The notes under the pieces were generated by a model. That model was given only the letters and a program-made list of their open reading frames with translations, was not told where the DNA came from and made no database searches. Positions 15,446-47,571 of a DNA stretch of 64,000 nt are shown here, piece by piece. The stretch comes from an uncultured Pseudomonadota bacterium (GTDB lineage: Bacteria > Oederibacteriota > Muellerivitia > Muellerivitales > Muellerivitaceae), in the NCBI GenBank assembly GCA_963843375.1, contig CAWJKT010000010.1:160237-224236 (forward strand), read 5' to 3'. Positions within the stretch are counted from its first letter, which is position 1. The number at the start of each line of letters is the position of its first letter. Position numbers and translations under genes: made by a program.

Positions 15446-18400
15446 ATGAAGTTTTTTTCCCAGATCCTGCTCATTCGGTTTCTTTTTTCTTTCCTTTTAT
15501 TTTTATTTGTTGTCGGATCGAAAGCCCAAGACCTGGGTTTCGGGCCCAATAAGGTCCGGTACCACGCCGATCATCATTGGAAAATCCTCGAAACCGCGCA
15601 TTTTCAAGTTTATTATCTACGATAAATGCGAAGTACTTACACAAACTGCGGCGGATGACGCCGAAAAAGCTTTCTTAAAAACCTGCCAAGCCTTTAATTT
15701 TGTTCCCCGAACCAAAATCCCATTATTTGTTTATGCTACGCCTATGGAATTCGAGGAAACCAATATCACGCCCGAAATATTACAAGAAGCCGTAGGTGGT
15801 TTTACCGAAGTGTTTAAAAACCGGATCGCCGTTCCTATGGATGGTTCCTATCACGAATTCGAAAAAGTTATTCATCATGAATTGACCCATGCCTTCCAAT
15901 ACGATTTGATCTATGGGGAAGGATGGAGGTCGGTCAATTTATTCAAAGCCGTTTTCGTTCCCAATGGATGATGGAAGGAATGGCGGAGTGGAACGCCCAA
16001 CATCTTGGATGGTCAAGGCGAAATGGTTTTAAGGGATGCAATCCTAAATGACCAAGTGATGCCCCTCAATCTGATGGAATCTTTCGATCATTTTGAGCAA
16101 GTTTATATTGCTTATAAAGAATCCCAGAGCCTATTGGATTATGTCACCCAGGTTTACGGGGAGGGAAGAGTAGTCCAAATTTTCAAGCGAATGGCGGCAA
16201 ACCAGCCTCCGGATACCGCCATTAAAAACGTTTTAGGGATTTCCCTTAACGATCTTTACAACAATTGGCATTTTTATATGAAATCGCAAACTTGGTCAAA
16301 AATCAGTGGAATGCCGGTGCCGGAACGTTACGGCGAATGCCTGGAAAAAGACGTCTTCAAGTCAACTGTCTCTCCTGATGGAAAAGAAATCGCAATCCTC
16401 AAAAACGAGGAGTTGGATTTATATGATGTGGCAACGAAAAAAAAGAGGAAAATCTTAAATCGTCATTTCGGAATACAAGGGTCTGGCTTGGCTTGGTCTC
16501 CGGATGGAAATTTCCTGGCATTTACCGCCAGCCAGGAAGGGGAGTATGGACTTTACAAATTGGAAATGAAAAATCTTCACCTTTCGGAATGTCCCTTAAC
16601 CGGGCTTCCAATGGTTTACTCCCCAACCTGGTCACCCGATCAGCGGTATATCATTTTTTCGGGATTCGACTATAAAACGGTTGATTTATACCGATACGAA
16701 TTGGCTACAAAACATGTAGACCGTTTGACAGACAATCAAGCAAGTGAATCTTGGGCTTCTTATTCCGTGGATCAAAAATCTCTTTATTATTTATCCGAAG
16801 AGGATGGAAATACCCAAATAAATAAGTCACTTTGGGAGATAATGGATTACCCCGAGGCCAGCCTATTGACGATCGGTAAAGAACTCGGAACGATTTCCTG
16901 TTTTCGAGTTACGAAAAAATGCGATCTATTTCACCTCAAATCGGGATAAAGGAATTTTTAACTTGTATAAAATGAGTCTCGATGGCGACTCCTTAATCCA
17001 ATTAACCCATACTTTTGCAGACATTTTAAATGTTTCTCCATCCCCGGATGAGTCGGTTTTTTATGCAACTCTTTATCAACATTCCAAAGAAAATCTTTAT
17101 GCCTGTCCAGCGGAAAAGTTGGAAAAAAACGAAAACCCCCCCTTCAATTTAAAATATATCGCTAACTCGTTTGAAATCGCGGGTAAAATTCTCCCTGAAA
17201 CTGCCTCAAAAGACACCGTTAATGATTTTGAGATACCCCTTAACTCCGACCATGATCGGGACGAACCAGAAGTCGTCAGGAATAAAAAACCGCCGACCCA
17301 ACCCCCCGCCGTTGTCACCCATTTGGAAGTATCGGAAGCAACAAACCTCGTCCAACTTCAATGGCCCGCTCTCAAATGCCGAAACGGATTCGGTTGATAG
17401 TTACAAAATTTATCGATCTACTTCAGCTGGCGCAAGATTTGCCTATCTCGCCACAACCTCCAACACAAAACAAGGGCGATATGTGGATTATGACGTTCAA
17501 AACAACGGAACTTATTTTTATTACGTAACCGCAGTTAATAAAATGGGGGAGAGCGATCCATCTCCCATCGCCGAAGTTCACCCCTCCTTTAAAATGACTT
17601 CGCACGATTATCAATTAACCCTCTCACCCGACATTCTTCTTTTTTTGGCGGGGTATGACAGTTCTTTTGGATTTGTCGGAGGAGGAATCGCCCAAATGAG
17701 CGATTATTTAGGCGATCAGCAATTGGGCATATCTAGGTGACACCATTCCCGGAGTCCAAACGGGAATCCAGGCAGATTATGAGTTTTCTCAATGGCGGAC
17801 AACGGTTGATTTGGATTTTTTTTATTATCAAAATTATTTTAACATTTACGATCTTCAAACCGGCGACATCGTTAATGAATACCGAAACAACGAAAATGGA
17901 TTTTCACTGAATTTCAGTTATCCGATCAATACCAGCACCCGGGTTGAATATGGGGTGGGAACACAGCGGTTTTTAGGAAGTCCCATTTATCTTCAGTTTT
18001 CGGAAGGAATATCTAATTATTCCCTTAACACCGATCAATGGAATGTGGCAAATTACTATCGACTCTCTTTTGTTCAAGACAAAAGAAAAGGAACCCAATT
18101 TTGGCCCAGCAGTGGTTACGCCTTAAATTTCACGCTTTTACACGCCTTGCCTGTTTTGGACTCGAATGTTTCGTTTGCCAATCTGCTTTTTGAAACACAG
18201 ACTTTTGCCGACATCAGTTTTTTAAACCATTTAATTTGGGCAAATCGTTTCATCGCCATGACATCCCAAGGCCCAAATCCCCAGACTTTCTTCATTGGAG
18301 ACGACGCCCCCTTCCAGGCTTATTTCACGACCATCCGAGGTTATGGAGCGAGTACGTTTTTCGGAAGTAACTTAGGCCTCCTGAACACTGAATTGCGCTA

Positions 18401-18675
18401 TCCCATCGCCACAAACATGAATTTCATACCGCAGCCTCTTTCCTTTTTCTTGATCAAAGACATTGAATTGGCCGCTTTCATGGATGCGGGTATCGTGTCC
18501 AACCAATTACAAGATTTTTCAGATTCCCAAGTTTTAAGCAGTATCGGAACCGGCATCCGTTTTTATACTTTTCTTTATCAAAGGGCTTTGGTTATGTTCC
18601 GATTTCGATGTTGCCTGGCGATTGGACCAATCTCTTCCGCCCACATTTCATTTTAACTTAGCCCCAATGTTTTAA
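15446..18675 (+). CDS. Omp85-family protein: gluzincin (HExxH) peptidase + PD40 propeller + FN3 + Omp85 barrel; multiply frameshifted in this sequence
   Basis: Joined frames read signal peptide-FGPNKVRY..W..LET.HF.VYY, HHELTHAFQY, W.MEGMAEW, WSPDG repeats, YKIYRS...YVD..V.N..TYFYYVTAVN..GES (FN3), IRGY, FMDAG, SIGTGIR, ending FNLAPMF*. Track fragments start at 15507, 16005, 16963, 17171 and 17811. Confidence 0.8.
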
Positions 18676-21343: not shown

Positions 21344-21982
21344 TTAAAGCGCACTGAGTTCTTGAGTATAAATCCAAGTGACCGGCAAGCTAGCAACGGG
21401 AACCACCAACGCAATTACAGAATATTGAGTTACCACGATTTCGGGTGTGGGAGTAACTCCAGGGAACGATGGGCCCACAATAGGATTATTATAAGTTTCC
21501 AATAAACATGAAACAGACATTTCGGTGGAGGTCCAGCATACACTTTGTGGAATGGTTCCAAAACCAGGATTACCCGGGATTGGTTCGGAAAAGGTATAGG
21601 CCTGTACATTTATCAAAATCATTTGGGTACTAAAATTGACCGGAGGGGTGGGAGCGGAGGTGGCTCCATAATAGTTTTGCCAGTCTGAAAGGCTGCGAAT
21701 GACGTAATCAGTCCCCGGGACAGGGTTTCCAATCGCCAAACCCGCTTCGGAATTGGGAATAGGTGGAGTCACTGGGGTAGGAATAGTAACAAAGCTGAAT
21801 CCGCACCCAGGTGTAGAAACGAAGGTAACGGTAGCGGTCGCGGTTGGAGTTGATGTAAGGGTTTGTGTCGGGGTATTTGTCGGGGGTAAACCCGGAACCG
21901 GTGCAACTGGGTATTTCCGATCACAAGCCCAAGAAGCCAGGCCCAAAACTATTAAAAATAAACTGATAAGAAACTTTTTCAT
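21344..21982 (-). CDS. Lipoprotein with Thr/Pro linker and PrcB-C-like domain
   Basis: MKKFLISLFLIVLGLASWA-C lipobox, TNTPTQT linker, VIRS..DW..Y....P.VNFS.QMIL pattern. Confidence 0.55.
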   Translation of the reverse strand: MKKFLISLFLIVLGLASWACDRKYPVAPVPGLPPTNTPTQTLTSTPTATATVTFVSTPGCGFSFVTIPTPVTPPIPNSEAGLAIGNPVPGTDYVIRSLSDWQNYYGATSAPTPPVNFSTQMILINVQAYTFSEPIPGNPGFGTIPQSVCWTSTEMSVSCLLETYNNPIVGPSFPGVTPTPEIVVTQYSVIALVVPVASLPVTWIYTQELSAL

Positions 21983-22149
21983 GGACACTTTCTAATTCAT
22001 ATTGCTCAAATTATACCACTATTCAAAATCTTCAACTCGATAGTCCTCTAAAGAAAAAAAACTAAAGATTTTCGTGCTTTAATGGCGGGCTCAAGCTGTT
22101 TTTTGCTCGATTAGCAAAGCTATAAATTTTTGCTTGTTTTTTTTGTTTC

Positions 22150-22179
22150 TATTTCATATAACTATAATTATATGAAATA
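22150..22179. promoter_or_regulatory. Candidate dif-like tyrosine-recombinase site (perfect 12-bp inverted repeat, 6-bp spacer)
   Basis: TATTTCATATAA CTATAA TTATATGAAATA. The 11-bp arm TTATATGAAAT matches the E. coli XerD arm TTATGTTAAAT at 9/11, and the site overlaps the recombinase ATG. Confidence 0.65.
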
Positions 22180-23233
22180 TAAAACAACTAATGAATCGCA
22201 TAAACCGTCCGAAAACTTAAATGAGCTTGAACCTTACCAGGGTTTTCTTGCTCTGTGCAAATCCCATCACACCCATTACAACTATCATCAGGATCTACGG
22301 GTTTTAAAGCAATTTTTGGATCAAAGCGACATTTCAAATCCAGTAAAAGTTCAGCCTATCGATTTGACACGTTTCGTAGGCCAATTAACCAAGCCTGGGT
22401 TAACACCCACTGGCAAGGACCGGCCAGCCTTTTCAACCCGTTCCATGAAACGCATCTTAGCCTCGACTCGATCCTTTTATCGGTATTTAGCCACAACGCA
22501 ACAAATCCTGTCTGATCCAACAGCCGTCTTTCATAACCTGGCAATCCGCAGCCCTCAACGCAATCCCCACCCGTTGCCACTAAATGATCGTATGGCCCTA
22601 GTAAAAAGTCTTCAAACGGGCGATTTGGAGGGTCAAAAAATCAGCCTGACCGTCCTGCTAGGCTTCCATTGTGGTCTGCGAGTTTCGGAAATAACACATA
22701 TTAAAATCCGGGATTTGGATCTAACTCAAGGACTTGTCACCGTCATAGGCAAAGGCGACAAGGAACGTATTGTTCCGATGACGGAGGCCTTACGAGAGCT
22801 CCTTAAACTTCACTTGAACCAGATGGAAAAAAAGGGGCCTTATCTTTTTCCAAGTCCAAGAAACAATCAAAAGCCTATCCATTTGCGATACCTTGAGTTG
22901 TGGGTCAAAAAAGCCGCTCAATGGGCTAATCTAGAGCACTCCAATGAGTTGACCGTCCACGTGTTGCGACACTCCTTTGGCACCCAATTGGCCGAATCGG
23001 GCGCAAGTGTCTATGAAATTCGGGACCTAATGGGCCACTCCAGCATCGTGGTCAGTGAAAATTATGTAAAGCTTGCCTCAACAAAGGGCCGGCAGGCCCA
23101 CCGAAAAGCTTTTGAGGAGGGCTACAAGGTCCATTCTTTGAATATGGGAGCATTATTTGGAATCGAATCGGTCTTGAAACGCTTCCGTGATATCAAGCGT
23201 AAGGCTTTACCGGGAAAACCCCAAAAGTACTAA
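22172..23233 (+). CDS. Xer-type tyrosine recombinase (353 aa)
   Basis: N-terminal S..T...Y..DL, catalytic residues in GLRVSE, GKGDKER, HVLRHSFGT, LMGH, ENY. No other mobile-element genes nearby. Confidence 0.93.
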   Translation: MKYKTTNESHKPSENLNELEPYQGFLALCKSHHTHYNYHQDLRVLKQFLDQSDISNPVKVQPIDLTRFVGQLTKPGLTPTGKDRPAFSTRSMKRILASTRSFYRYLATTQQILSDPTAVFHNLAIRSPQRNPHPLPLNDRMALVKSLQTGDLEGQKISLTVLLGFHCGLRVSEITHIKIRDLDLTQGLVTVIGKGDKERIVPMTEALRELLKLHLNQMEKKGPYLFPSPRNNQKPIHLRYLELWVKKAAQWANLEHSNELTVHVLRHSFGTQLAESGASVYEIRDLMGHSSIVVSENYVKLASTKGRQAHRKAFEEGYKVHSLNMGALFGIESVLKRFRDIKRKALPGKPQKY

Positions 23234-23583
23234 AAGTCCTTAAAAAGTCTCGAAATCGAAAACTAAGTCGTCTTTAAGTTTTTATTTATCAAATTAAATC
23301 TACTCTTCAATTAGGATCAATAAGGCCAAAACTGAGAATCCAATTTGGAAGAGCTCAAAACTAGTCGATTTTACATTTAAACTATGTTTATTTGAACGAT
23401 TATTAACCAGTACCAATCTTTGTACCTTTCGCTCAAGGGTCTAAGTTCAGTCAAAATTCAGTCCGTTTAGACCTTCGTTAACCAGAATCAATTTTTCGAA
23501 ATCAAACCTCGAATGGTAAAAAGAAGGCAAAAATAAGGAAAAGGCGTGATTATCCGTCCCGTAATTTGCCAACAACCATTTTT

Positions 23584-23616
23584 AAATTTACCCACCCGTC
23601 CTAATTGGGTAAATTT
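23584..23616. repeat. Perfect 11-bp inverted repeat with 11-bp spacer
   Basis: AAATTTACCCA-cccgtcctaat-TGGGTAAATTT, about 55 bp upstream of the aminotransferase. Confidence 0.6.
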
Positions 23617-23670
23617 CCTTTAAAATCCAGCCATTGAAAGATAGCTAAAGTTTTACTTTAAGGCGGCTTT

Positions 23671-24831
23671 ATGCAATTTTCTTACCGAACACCGCATGAT
23701 CTTTCATTAAATTCCATTTCGAAAACCCTGGAAACCGTGTCGAATGGTTCCATTTTGGATCTTACCCTGTCCAATCCCACCCAGTGCGGGTTTAAATACC
23801 CTTCCGATTTACTTCAATCCCTCGCTTCCCCATCCGGCCTGAACTACGAACCAACTCCCTTTGGTCATATTGGGGCAAGGAAGGCAGTTGCGGAATATAT
23901 GAAATCAAAGAAAGAAGAAGTTTCACCAGATAACATCCTACTTACCTCCAGCAGCAGCGAGTCCTATTCCTACCTTTTTAAACTTTTAGCCGATCCAGGT
24001 GACTCGTTTTTGGTACCTACTCCTGGTTATCCCCTCCTCGAACACCTTATTCGGTTGGAGGGGGTAAAACTAATTCCCTATACCCTTAAAAAGGAGCTTC
24101 ATTGGCCGGTCCATCTAGAAGGCATCGAAACCTCAGCAAGGGCTCGAGTCAAGGGATTGGTGGTCGTAAATCCCCATAATCCCACCGGAACCTTTTTAAG
24201 TGCAAATGACCAAAAAGCGCTTGGAAAACTTTGCCAACAAAGGGAATGGTCATACATTTCCGATGAAGTTTTTGGGGATTTTGCCTATCCCGGTGAGGCC
24301 ATAAGTCCGATAGTCCCTCAAGAGTTTCTATCTTTTCGGCTAGGGGGGCTTTCCAAAAGCCTGGGACTTCCTCAACTCAAGTTGTCCTGGGTCATTTTGG
24401 ATGGTCCACGGGATCTCTTAATCGAAGCCAGGGAGCGGCTGGAACTTATTGCCGACACTTATCTTTCGGTCGGAACGCCGGTTCAACTGGCCCTGAATGA
24501 GCTTTTACGGTTTGCCCCAAACTTTCAAAAACAGGTCCTGGAAAGGGTTCTTTCCAATCGCTTCCAACTCATGAAAACCTTTAAATCCTCACCCCACCTA
24601 AAAATTTGGCCTTCACAAGGCGGTTGGTACGCTTTATTGGAAGTGTTGAAACCCGGGGCAAAGGATGAGGAACTGGTGATTCAATTGCTAAAAAAAGAGA
24701 GGGTATTCATTCAACCTGGCGGCTTTTACGATTTTGAAAACGGTTGTTTCTTGGTGGTGAGCCTTTTAACCCAAACTGAGGTTTTCAAGGAAGGAATTGG
24801 GAGAATCTTTAGTTTTTTTGATAAAAGGTAA
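23671..24831 (+). CDS. PLP-dependent aminotransferase class I/II
   Basis: VVNPHNPTG, ISDEVF, GLSKSLGLP.LKLSW. Confidence 0.92.
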   Translation: MQFSYRTPHDLSLNSISKTLETVSNGSILDLTLSNPTQCGFKYPSDLLQSLASPSGLNYEPTPFGHIGARKAVAEYMKSKKEEVSPDNILLTSSSSESYSYLFKLLADPGDSFLVPTPGYPLLEHLIRLEGVKLIPYTLKKELHWPVHLEGIETSARARVKGLVVVNPHNPTGTFLSANDQKALGKLCQQREWSYISDEVFGDFAYPGEAISPIVPQEFLSFRLGGLSKSLGLPQLKLSWVILDGPRDLLIEARERLELIADTYLSVGTPVQLALNELLRFAPNFQKQVLERVLSNRFQLMKTFKSSPHLKIWPSQGGWYALLEVLKPGAKDEELVIQLLKKERVFIQPGGFYDFENGCFLVVSLLTQTEVFKEGIGRIFSFFDKR

Positions 24832-24832
24832 A

Positions 24833-25531
24833 TTAAGATTGAAGATTTTTCAGCCGGCGTTGGGCTTCTTTGCCCCAATTGGAATCGGGATCGTTTTTGG
24901 CAACCAAGTTCAATTCTTCCAGAGCTTTGACTTTGTCGTTACTTTTTAGGTATATATCGGAGAGATTCAGTCTTAATTCCGACATGATAAAACTATCTGG
25001 ATGTTCCTTCAGAAAGGTTTCAGCCAAGGTAACTGCCTGGGGTAATTGATTTTGGGCCTCTAAACAAAGGATTTTCCCAAAATAAGCCTCATCTCCCAAG
25101 GGGTTATCTCTAAGTTGCTGGCTGGCTGAATCAAAACTGCCGTAGGCCTGCTGAACTTGTCCCAAATCATATTGGCACTTCGCAACGTAATAACGCGCAA
25201 TTCTGCTGGTCTTCGTTCCCGAATAATCGGTTAGAATTCTTTGGAATGTTTGTAAAGCGTTTTGGGTTCTTTCAACCACACTTTTAAAGGGCCCTTTTAC
25301 GGGATCAACTTCGGAATGAAGATAATACTGCCCGAGGCTTAAAACACCCTGGGCATCCTTTTCATTTTGGTCCTGGCTGTGAAAATAATACGGAATCCCG
25401 ATTCCCAGCAGCAAAAGAACAATGACCGCGATGGCAATAATTTCCTGGTGGGCTTTGGCCCAATCCAAGCCTTTTTCAGCAGCCGTCTTTTCTTTAGTAA
25501 GAGGATTGAATTTGCCCAATAGAGTCGCCAT
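24833..25531 (-). CDS. Membrane-anchored TPR protein (YfgM-like)
   Basis: One N-terminal TM helix followed by TPR-like helices. Confidence 0.7.
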   Translation of the reverse strand: MATLLGKFNPLTKEKTAAEKGLDWAKAHQEIIAIAVIVLLLLGIGIPYYFHSQDQNEKDAQGVLSLGQYYLHSEVDPVKGPFKSVVERTQNALQTFQRILTDYSGTKTSRIARYYVAKCQYDLGQVQQAYGSFDSASQQLRDNPLGDEAYFGKILCLEAQNQLPQAVTLAETFLKEHPDSFIMSELRLNLSDIYLKSNDKVKALEELNLVAKNDPDSNWGKEAQRRLKNLQS

Positions 25532-28112: not shown

Positions 28113-28583
28113 TTAGGCCAAATTATATTTTTTTAAAATCTCACGGGTAGAGGTAATGAGTGTTTTAAGCTCTAAAACTTTATCCGGTGAAGAAAAAAGG
28201 GACGAGGGGTGACCCGCAATCCTCTGGACGCTAGAAGAATGCTCTTCCGTGGAAAGTTCTATGGGTGAGACCGGTTGAATCGTTTCGGCTTGGATTGAAC
28301 CTGCGCCCGTCGAAGCTTGGGGCGAGTCTAAGCCTTGTTTTTCTTCTAATTCTTCAAGCTTTTTGACGGCTCCGGCTATGGTGTATTGTTCATCATAAAG
28401 AAGCCGCTTGATTGTCAAAGCAATCTGCAAGTCCTTTTGACGATAGACCCTTTGACCCGTCACGGATTTTTGGGGATTAAGCTTTCGAAATTCAGTCTCC
28501 CAATACCTTAAAACATAAGGCTTCACATCTACGATTTGAGCGACTTCACCGATGGTATAAAATAACTTATCTTCCTCGGTCAT
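28113..28583 (-). CDS. MerR-family transcriptional regulator
   Basis: [24 protein letters not shown]...GQR.Y; conserved ihfA-merR-tRNA-Pro context. Confidence 0.93.
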
Positions 28584-28616
28584 CCATTCCCCCAAAACCA
28601 TTGAGAATAGTGAAAC

Positions 28617-28889
28617 TCAGTCTTTGAGCCTCTTTTTAAACAGAGGCCCCGGCTTAAAAAACAGCACCTTTCTCGCCGGCAAAGGTACCCTTTTTCCTGT
28701 CTTGGGATTGCGGGCCAATCGAGCGCGTCTTTGACGCCATTCCCACGTCCCCAATCCTACTATAGAAACTTTTTTCTCCTCCAGCAAGGCAGTCACAATC
28801 GAGTTAAAAAAAGACTCCACCGCCAATCCAGCTTGCCTTTCCGTTAGCCCTAGACGGGTAAGACTTTTTATTAAATCTTTACGGGTCAA
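28617..28889 (-). CDS. ihfA: Integration host factor alpha / HU family protein
   Basis: TRKDL, GLGTW, ARNPKTG...PARKV.FFKPG. The alpha assignment comes from synteny with merR. Confidence 0.75.
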   Translation of the reverse strand: MTRKDLIKSLTRLGLTERQAGLAVESFFNSIVTALLEEKKVSIVGLGTWEWRQRRARLARNPKTGKRVPLPARKVLFFKPGPLFKKRLKD

Positions 28890-46888: not shown

Positions 46889-47571
46889 GGATACCTTTCT
46901 GGCGGCTAAGCTAAACTTTTCCGAAGCACTTTGCAAAGCCTAATAGTCCCTTTTCCCTTGTTTTTTTGAAAAAGGAACCCTAAGTCTTTATTCTTCAAAA
47001 TCATTTCCAACAAGAACTAAGCCCTTTTGTTTATTTCCAGTCATTTGGTTCTGAAATTTTTCAAAATCAAAAAATTTCCTCAAAACTTGTCATTTTTACA
47101 TTTAAACGGCTTTTATTTAAGAGATAATTAAGGGGGATCACCCCAATGTCATTCCCACAAATCGCTCAAAAGGTTTTTTAAAGGCAGAATGATCCCATTT
47201 TTATCCCGGAGAATTTGGCCATAAATTAAGGGAAAACATTCATATAGGGATCACCACAACCAAAAGACAACATTACAAACCGCAAAAAACCAAACCATCC
47301 GTAATCAATTCTTCCCCGTCCGTTTCCAAGTAGGATTTTAAAAGCTAAAGTCGCCAAAACAGTCGAAAAGGCTTTTAAATAAATGTTTTCCAAAAAAGTT
47401 AAAGTAATGCTTGAAGTTAATTTAGATTGTTTTGGGGGAGCACGGTGAGAATTTCATTCCGCGGAATCTTTGAACCCGGGACGGAAGAGCCTTTGGGAGA
47501 GTCTCACTATGAGGTATCTCATATTCGCGGAAAGAACTTTTGATTAAAGTAGCGCCTTTTACGGAGGCCCT

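Follow-up and report, generated by a model that had tools for sequence, protein, structure and literature searches.

In the window (the whole 64,000-nt stretch of DNA that was analysed), an Xer-type tyrosine recombinase of 353 aa is encoded at 22172..23233 on the plus strand. The called protein is the open reading frame that a sequence-only reading had started at ATG 22172, and its catalytic set is intact, with R170, K194, H263, R266, H289 and Y298 invariant in an alignment of 38 homologues. Directly upstream lies a dif-type site (22150..22179, without strand assignment), in which two 12-bp arms enclose the spacer CTATAA. The ATG had been placed inside the right arm, which is correct for this genome, but the overlap is seen in only 3 of 30 genomes and is incidental. 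Just 3' of the gene follows a non-coding element of about 400 bp, composed of an IHF-like box, a 33-bp polar core and a 17-bp palindrome.

The recombinase belongs to a lineage-specific subfamily. It scores under the cut-offs of the XerC, XerD, XerA and XerS models, in agreement with the earlier idea of a divergent subfamily, and the divergent features described at that time (an insert, VVSENY and a C-terminal tail) were all recovered. According to the alignment and a structure model (mean pLDDT 85), the insert is conserved at residues 72-87 (22385..22432, plus strand) and is predicted to form a beta-hairpin in the N-terminal domain, while an extra helix is predicted at 331-345. The nearest solved relatives, by sequence and by fold, are XerD and XerA. 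In a tree with outgroups, from which three outgroup rows were left out, the clade could not be placed relative to XerC or XerD because of long branches. The clade's sister in this tree is a long-branched, prophage-like integrase of G009. This 311-aa protein (L305:4419-5354, on G009:C20) lies in a prophage-like region with recombination and lysozyme-like genes. Dozens of proteins of 600-750 aa with two Xer-like stretches (e.g. P0133-P0169) rank just past the clade and are possibly fused double recombinases. Three tandem tyrosine recombinases, a RIT-like trio, are present at G000:C8:94925-98300, preceded by a TTCACATAA-N6-TTATGTGAA dyad, and G013:C19 holds a trio with near-identical scores.

It was confirmed that the arms of the site are identical, over 12 bp, around an asymmetric 6-bp core; the conserved symmetry extends over 11-12 bp. 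The TTGTTT/AAACAA flanks that had also been pointed out are present here without being conserved: at positions 13-20, pairing is seen in 6-13 of 30 genomes, arm pairing past position 12 is at chance level in these genomes, and the flanks are incidental. Similarly, the 9/11 likeness to the E. coli XerD arm holds for this arm type and does not extend to the other arm types. Perfect repeats with 12-bp arms and a 6-bp spacer are not rare, with 20 in the 4.05-Mb genome. At up to three mismatches the site matches once in the window and never in 100 shuffles, and in a genome scan with a matrix from 21 relatives it comes out on top at 34.7 bits, against 19.3 bits for the runner-up; it is thus single-copy in the window as well as in the genome. 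Three further sequencing runs carry it unchanged.

The order was sampled with 32 genomes, one of which is without the gene and one without the gene's 5' end; site counts use the other 30. In 30 of 30 the palindrome is found directly upstream of the orthologous gene, which answers the question of its conservation raised in the sequence-only reading. The inner TATAA is near-invariant. The outer seven arm pairs are complementary in 175 of 210 cells, compared to 103 +/- 9 in shuffles (maximum 143 in 10,000), where the genomes are taken as they are, kinship included, and both arms change together among relatives. No palindromic spacer occurs in the 30 genomes: the spacer ends are T..G in 21, C..A in 8 and T..A in 1. 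The orientation of the spacer changes at least seven times on the tree, and reverse-complement spacers are found in two pairs of sister genomes (G023/G071 and G021/G072). Template-switch correction of quasi-palindromes could perfect inverted arms and flip spacers without selection, so that arm covariation alone is no proof of selection. This process fits the two pairs with reverse-complement spacers and may account for part of the arm symmetry, which counts against a dif function.

On the enzyme side, one position stands out. Codons 237-240 (HLRY; 22880..22891, plus strand) lie at the start of a helix. Residue 239 in this helix varies with the arm type, and among 323 alignment columns this residue is the best arm predictor (z 10.5). 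An Arg is found with ..TTCATATAA arms (3 genomes), an Asp with ..GGTATAA arms (13 genomes), and His or Asn with ..TCTATAA and ..AGTATAA arms. Residue 239 aligns to XerD Q221, and in XerH, according to excerpts of PMC5241119, the equivalent helix inserts into the outer arm's major groove. Arm class and residue 239 agree in 28/28 genomes, with arm classes drawn post hoc (classes C and D were pooled and a hybrid site was assigned to B), on a tree of 28 rows that was built without the helix of residue 239 and from which one fragment and one protein-less genome were left out. Each needs at least four changes on this tree, and four suffice for both jointly. The three R239 genomes do not form one clade (AU p 0.009). 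Only 2-3 residue-arm pairs are independent (sign test p 0.25-0.5), and the agreement therefore falls short of significance; other columns covary by descent too, 12 of them with z > 4. Since residue 239 tracks the arm type, the enzyme appears tied to the adjacent site, and this covariation may be regarded as the most direct evidence that the recombinase reads 22150..22179.

Viral contigs were searched with the arm types of the site: two types gave 0 matches and one was found in 2 contigs of a single unrelated phage, with a different spacer. In this phage (L322:3001-3026) a dyad with D-type arms and the spacer AAAGTC lies just past the phage's own integrase and is probably an att core.

Orthologues of the recombinase occur in 29 of the 30 other genomes of the family, the one missing it being 63% complete, and in the only genome (1/1) of the sister family. 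None of 67 other genomes of the phylum has an orthologue at a comparable score; three of them reach only 158-163 bits, with proteins that fall beside XerC or XerD in the tree. Of the clusters in the protein collection, 111 score E < 1e-55, after which the values drop to 1e-29, and a metagenome scan yielded at least one orthologue. The named records with orthologues are assigned to candidate division FCPU426 or Candidatus Firestonebacteria, or are unclassified. No paper on an FCPU426 recombinase was found in a literature search that had subscription papers mostly outside its range.

A canonical xerC/xerD pair, whose presence would have spoken against a one-enzyme system, was found in none of five 97-99% complete genomes of the order. 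With the XerD model, the orthologue reaches 138-155 bits in these five genomes, whereas four of five genomes of other families give two matches of 295-354 bits, and canonical dif is present in three of these same five. The two adjacent recombinases of G013 (194-204 bits) are tentatively read as mobile. Another one-enzyme module may exist in the phylum: in a family with a single Xer found (281 bits), a near-symmetric TATAA-N6-TTATA site (L318:1640-1667, on G026:C9) precedes the xer gene by about 1.4 kb.

The gene order around the locus is conserved across the 23 neighbourhoods examined and the flanking genes are housekeeping genes, so that the absence of phage, plasmid and integron neighbours, noted at the outset, was borne out. 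In G012 and G022 (L055 and L056) the gene order is rearranged, with the breakpoint just past the 3' element. G029, a genome with XerCD, has one canonical xer gene beside the same engA-plsY-gpsA-ihf-merR block, at the terminus/skew switch. Descent in place from a canonical gene is therefore possible, and the recombinase may have originated in this way.

In six of six genomes (G000, G001, G003, G012, G013 and G025) the site lies 2.3-4.1 kb from the point of coding-strand convergence, which places it at the terminus. In the window, this terminus marker (24831..24833, without strand) is 2.7 kb from the site. The raw GC-skew maximum is found 19-32 kb from the site in the same 6/6 genomes, and the codon-position skew flips at the site in the five genomes with long contigs. 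For the present genome (80% complete), the raw skew peaks 28 kb from the site, which fits a dif function less well. The first part of one contig (G000:C10:1-50000) has about 72% G+C, compared to 49% in the rest of the contig, and is an island or a misjoin. FtsK gamma is present in 5/5 genomes. Four near-complete genomes encode one GyrA/ParC-family protein each, and hence no separate Topo IV was found in them. H. pylori is likewise described as being without Topo IV in the available portion of PMC5357621. A long gene (window 15507-18656) that is whole in relatives is split into pieces here, as is gyrA (G000:C11:11473-12795), which suggests frameshift errors in the assembly.

The site also appears to overlap the promoter of the recombinase gene. 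The inner left arm and the first spacer base form TATAAC (22157..22162, plus strand), a putative -10 hexamer that is TATAAT in most relatives. The -35 hexamer, TTGTTT here (22134..22139, plus strand), starts with TTG in 22/30 genomes. A TTG-starting hexamer is positioned 16-18 bp upstream of the -10 in these 22/30, compared to 3/30 on the opposite strand, a control that overlaps the ribosome site and the coding sequence. In this genome the promoter match is weak, and a consensus scan does not pick the -35. The start codon is located 11-17 bp past the arm in most D-type genomes, without a Shine-Dalgarno sequence, and 23-27 bp past the arm in most H/N-type genomes, with one. For difSL-xerS, Le Bourgeois et al. 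speculated on promoter overlap, with autoregulation or a guard against integration (PMC1914069, in the part available). A term search for xerS/difSL autoregulation came back empty, even though that paper discusses autoregulation. The present data give comparative support to the speculation of 2007 that such sites sit in the promoter of their own gene, and make it testable.

Overall, the palindrome most probably serves the chromosome as its dif site, with the adjacent gene encoding the sole Xer recombinase (probability about 0.88), and as part of the same reading the one-recombinase module would have replaced canonical XerCD/dif in this order. The self-contained single-recombinase module for dimer resolution that had been suggested from the letters alone gains support from conservation, single copy, terminus position and the absence of XerC/XerD. 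Conservation, symmetry, terminus position, single copy, XerCD absence, residue-arm covariation and promoter geometry were computed; binding, recombination, FtsK control and autorepression are what we infer for the module. In the proposed mechanism, two sister sites offer four identical arms, each of which would be bound by one of four identical subunits. The strands would then be exchanged across the 6-bp spacer, probably under FtsK control, and a chromosome dimer would be converted to monomers at division. The inner TATAA would serve as shared recognition core and residues 237-240 would read the outer arm, while the spacer, which is always asymmetric, would set the direction of the site. Because the left arm is the proposed -10 box, the bound recombinase would repress its own gene, and an integration at the site would disconnect the gene from its promoter.

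Two other explanations have to be weighed against a dif site. The palindrome could act only as an autoregulatory operator, with recombination taking place elsewhere, e.g. at the polar core of the 3' element (core B), or not at all. It does cover the -10 box, and core B is an imperfect dyad as well, by eye like the arms of difH and difSL. Yet an operator leaves unexplained why the spacer is asymmetric in 30/30 genomes and identical to the difH and difSL centres. Moreover, there are several copies of core B, their spacers differ from one another, and next to the gene the core is absent in G003, G019 and G025, whereas the palindrome is universal, which makes this explanation very improbable. An integrase with the att site of a mobile element, or a remnant thereof, is even less probable and has already been largely refuted. 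It would agree with the long-branched G009 integrase being the nearest outside relative in the tree, and relatives with 39-45% identity and unplaced context exist. However, there is one copy of the site per genome and no second one bounding a cargo region, which had been named as the mark of such an element, was found. The neighbours are conserved in 23 genomes, the recombinase tree broadly follows the genera, the best viral and plasmid matches have an identity of only about 25-35%, and the xer gene by the engA-ihf-merR block of G029 allows for descent in place. The dif site with its single recombinase thus remains the preferred reading.

Taken as such, the module would be a single-Xer dif system that resembles XerS, XerH and XerL in function and is a member of none of them. 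XerS/difSL, the closest parallel in organisation, is also composed of one recombinase of about 350 aa with a site immediately before its gene, the only xer gene, at the terminus and in replacement of XerCD; its centre CTGTAA is the same as some of the spacers found here (PMC2965235, as excerpted), and passages of PMC1914069 show that XerS needs FtsK. The recombinase described here, in contrast, reaches 78 bits with the XerS model (cut-off 267), and the arms of difSL are unequal (TTTCCGAAAA-type and GAAAA-type), whereas the present arms are TATAA-type and near-perfect. XerH/difH of Helicobacter and Campylobacter shares the single recombinase, the linked site, the centres CTATAA/CTGTAA (PMC2731167, Table 2, as far as available) and a host without Topo IV. 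XerH differs in giving only 38 bits to the recombinase, and in the TGAAAA-N6-TTTTCA arms of difH an inserted base makes the arms differ and orders binding (PMC5241119, in part); such a base is absent here. Perfect arms have a precedent in XerL of Legionella and Coxiella, where the accessible part of 10.1101/2021.09.12.459815 reports one recombinase and uninterrupted arms of 10-12 bp for the Legionellales. XerL was set apart by this description: the centre is 4 bp in Legionella instead of 6 bp, the catalytic residue is Y387/Y389 instead of Y298, and, in the same excerpts, the gene does not adjoin the site but is more than 400 kb away or plasmid-borne.

XerC and XerD are nearest by sequence and fold, and the arms here are of XerCD type as far as the consulted sources define it. 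Nevertheless, the recombinase stays below their cut-offs (153/335 and 142/330 bits) and is one protein instead of two paralogues. Archaeal XerA is also near by sequence and fold (134 bits, cut-off 220). XerC/XerD-dif and XerA have a TAA-N6-TTA core in common with the present site, and compared to these enzymes the recombinase adds the beta-hairpin insert and the extra C-terminal helix. With Cre/loxP, the module shares identical arms, an asymmetric centre and the logic of a homotetramer. Cre has only 12-15% identity to the recombinase in fold alignments, and the module is chromosomal with a centre of 6 bp, compared to 8 bp in loxP. The Cre/lox-like tool that the sequence-only reading had in mind may depend on FtsK, which is encoded here and which XerS needs. 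The promoter overlap, the residue-arm code and the three-box flanking element had escaped that reading, and the element is what is new here. The module would be a further case, independent of the others, in which a single enzyme has taken the place of XerCD. As the arms carry no asymmetry, the ordering of strand exchange would be left to the spacer, to FtsK or to accessory DNA. In addition, orthogonal recombinases might be drawn from this natural series of enzyme-site pairs, whose short code is R, D or H/N at a single position.

The element 3' of the gene is composed of box A, which resembles an IHF site (consensus TAAGTCnTTaTTtaTCA; 23272..23293), the 33-bp polar core B (consensus TTTTGCATTTAAA-N5-TTTTTTTGAACGATT; 23369..23401) and the palindromic box C (TTAAAGT-N3-ACTT(T/G)A; 23644..23661), all on the plus strand. 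At window position 23373, two other sequencing runs have G, the consensus base of core B. A second full copy is found 25 kb off, on the plus strand at 46978..47415 (A 46978-46999, B 47094-47126, C 47398-47415), and points away from the site. When the matrices for A and C were trained on other genomes, either one put these same two loci first, with 28.6 versus 19.6 bits for the next locus (A) and 37.9 versus 22.9 bits (C). Core B is present at up to one mismatch in 25/25 family genomes searched and in 0/16 others, with 0 matches in viral contigs. In 23 of 30 genomes the full element lies 3' of the gene, 1.18-1.40 kb from the site, and 18 genomes have a core-only copy upstream, in inverted orientation. 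There is no copy near the site in G003, G019 and G025, and in four genomes a contig end truncates the gene. The 41 copies that flank the site all point away from it, as do 6 of 8 additional ones on the same contigs. Distant copies sit between genes of all orientations, convergent ones included, and share no common neighbour gene.

The spacing of the boxes follows the helical repeat. Box A is positioned at -93 to -134 in 32 of 41 full-type copies, with offsets in steps of about 10 bp, and box C at +212 to +338 in 29 of 41. The offsets of box C show a 10.5-bp phase (Rayleigh test over 29 copies, p 2e-5, a statistic that is inflated because the copies are related by descent). A period scan gives an AA/TT periodicity of 10.5-11 bp out to +330; it was relied on since the jitter control was significant almost everywhere, core-only copies included. 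Ahead of box C there is a further site like box A, in inverted orientation, but it is weak (6/29 above 5 bits). A structured RNA was rejected on folding of four windows on both strands in 14 copies (mean z -0.1 to -0.5). The only Rfam match in 21900-23800, CRISPR-DR40, is at chance level (E 0.96). A sigma-54 or sigma-28 promoter at core B was likewise discarded: by eye, against the consensus, the spacing is off and the conserved bases lie elsewhere. No RNA run was among the matches listed for sequencing runs with the locus. No description of the element and no motif match was found in the literature searched, which had subscription papers mostly outside it.

With somewhat less than even confidence, it is proposed that the element represents an undescribed class of terminus site, i.e. 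a looped nucleoprotein complex in inverted copies around dif that organises or tethers the terminus or traps forks. Like MatP/matS, ZapT sites, Tus/Ter, RTP/Ter and cer/psi, it is terminus-linked, non-coding, polar, present in few copies and apparently bent or wrapped. What sets it apart from all of these is its set of three boxes, spread across about 400 bp; searches for Tus, RTP and ArgR found none of them. If the proposal is true, the element would supply control that the arms of a one-enzyme dif, being fully symmetric, cannot give, and such a site would serve a lineage without Topo IV, Tus and RTP. Systems that organise the terminus are known from few model lineages, and the element could bring one to light elsewhere.

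As to its role, a terminus-organising nucleoprotein site is preferred, albeit tentatively. In this case, IHF would bend box A, specific proteins would bind core B and box C along the same face of the helix, with the intervening DNA wrapped, and the complex would tether or present the dif region at the division site, possibly via a MerR protein of the ZapT type. The occurrence of the full element near the site in 23/30 genomes with an upstream core in 18, the steps of about 10 bp between A and B, the 10.5-bp phasing between B and C, the AA/TT period and the ranking of the same two loci by each of the A and C matrices all point in this direction. A MerR-type gene (28113..28601, minus strand) lies directly after an IHF/HU-family gene (28617..28889, minus strand; best match ihfA, below the cut-off) and is a candidate for the binder. 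The ihf-merR pair is found about 6 kb off in 16/23 neighbourhoods, and ZapA in 13/13 genomes. By excerpts of PMC7188993, ZapT is recognised by a MerR gene after ihfA and ZapA in the genome (for the arrangement also PMC7858052, in part); here, merR follows the ihf gene and ZapA is encoded. However, the binder of the element is only a candidate, the merR gene also occurs in G025, G029 and G036, genomes without the element, and Caulobacter ZapT, described without a consensus site in those excerpts, offers none for comparison. Box A fits the IHF consensus at only 7-8 of 9 positions, and in G003 the three copies of the element are 160-498 kb away from the site.

An accessory sequence that imposes direction or topology on the symmetric site seems unlikely. 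The cer/psi accessory DNA, in the available part of PMC2655662, comprises about 180 bp adjoining the core and works with ArgR or ArcA plus PepA. The upstream cores are indeed 102-255 bp from the site in 15/18 genomes and weakly phased with it (p 0.02), and the wrapped architecture recalls PepA-cer as portrayed there. The full element, on the other hand, lies 1.2 kb off beyond the gene instead of adjacent, is absent near the site in three genomes, and ArgR was found in 0/13 genomes. More doubtful still are polar, Ter-like fork-arrest sites that would form a trap around dif with an unnamed terminator protein. Here 47 of 49 placed copies point away from the site, but the flanking copies are not independent. 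The two strong copies that face the site (G003:C1:332638 and G011:C2:72195) would strand DNA if they blocked forks, and Tus and RTP were each found in 0/5 genomes with positive search controls. Improbable to about the same degree as the accessory role is a strong gyrase site that aids decatenation, or a promoter or regulatory region. The single GyrA/ParC-family gene in 4 near-complete genomes and the long periodic A/T tracts would suit a gyrase site; the gyrase motif is degenerate, though, and is exceeded by the near-invariant bases and three spaced boxes of the element. For a promoter, box C is just before the start of an aminotransferase gene and a weak minus-strand match covers core B. Against it, promoter matches are below chance (1 vs 3.1) and the distant copies lie between genes of every orientation.

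Several further motifs were observed. Stand-alone box C palindromes are located at G000:C10:150680, near the contig's raw GC-skew maximum, and at C11:438729. The left half of core B is found about 0.9 kb upstream of a phage-type integrase (G000:C6:225584) and a degenerate core B after an integrase in G012:C15, both of which may be due to chance. At least seven copies of a REP-like palindrome, TGTCCACGAC..GTCGTGGACA, are found in G000:C6 and C9, and other long dyads lie at C11:58037 and C10:93817 of G000.
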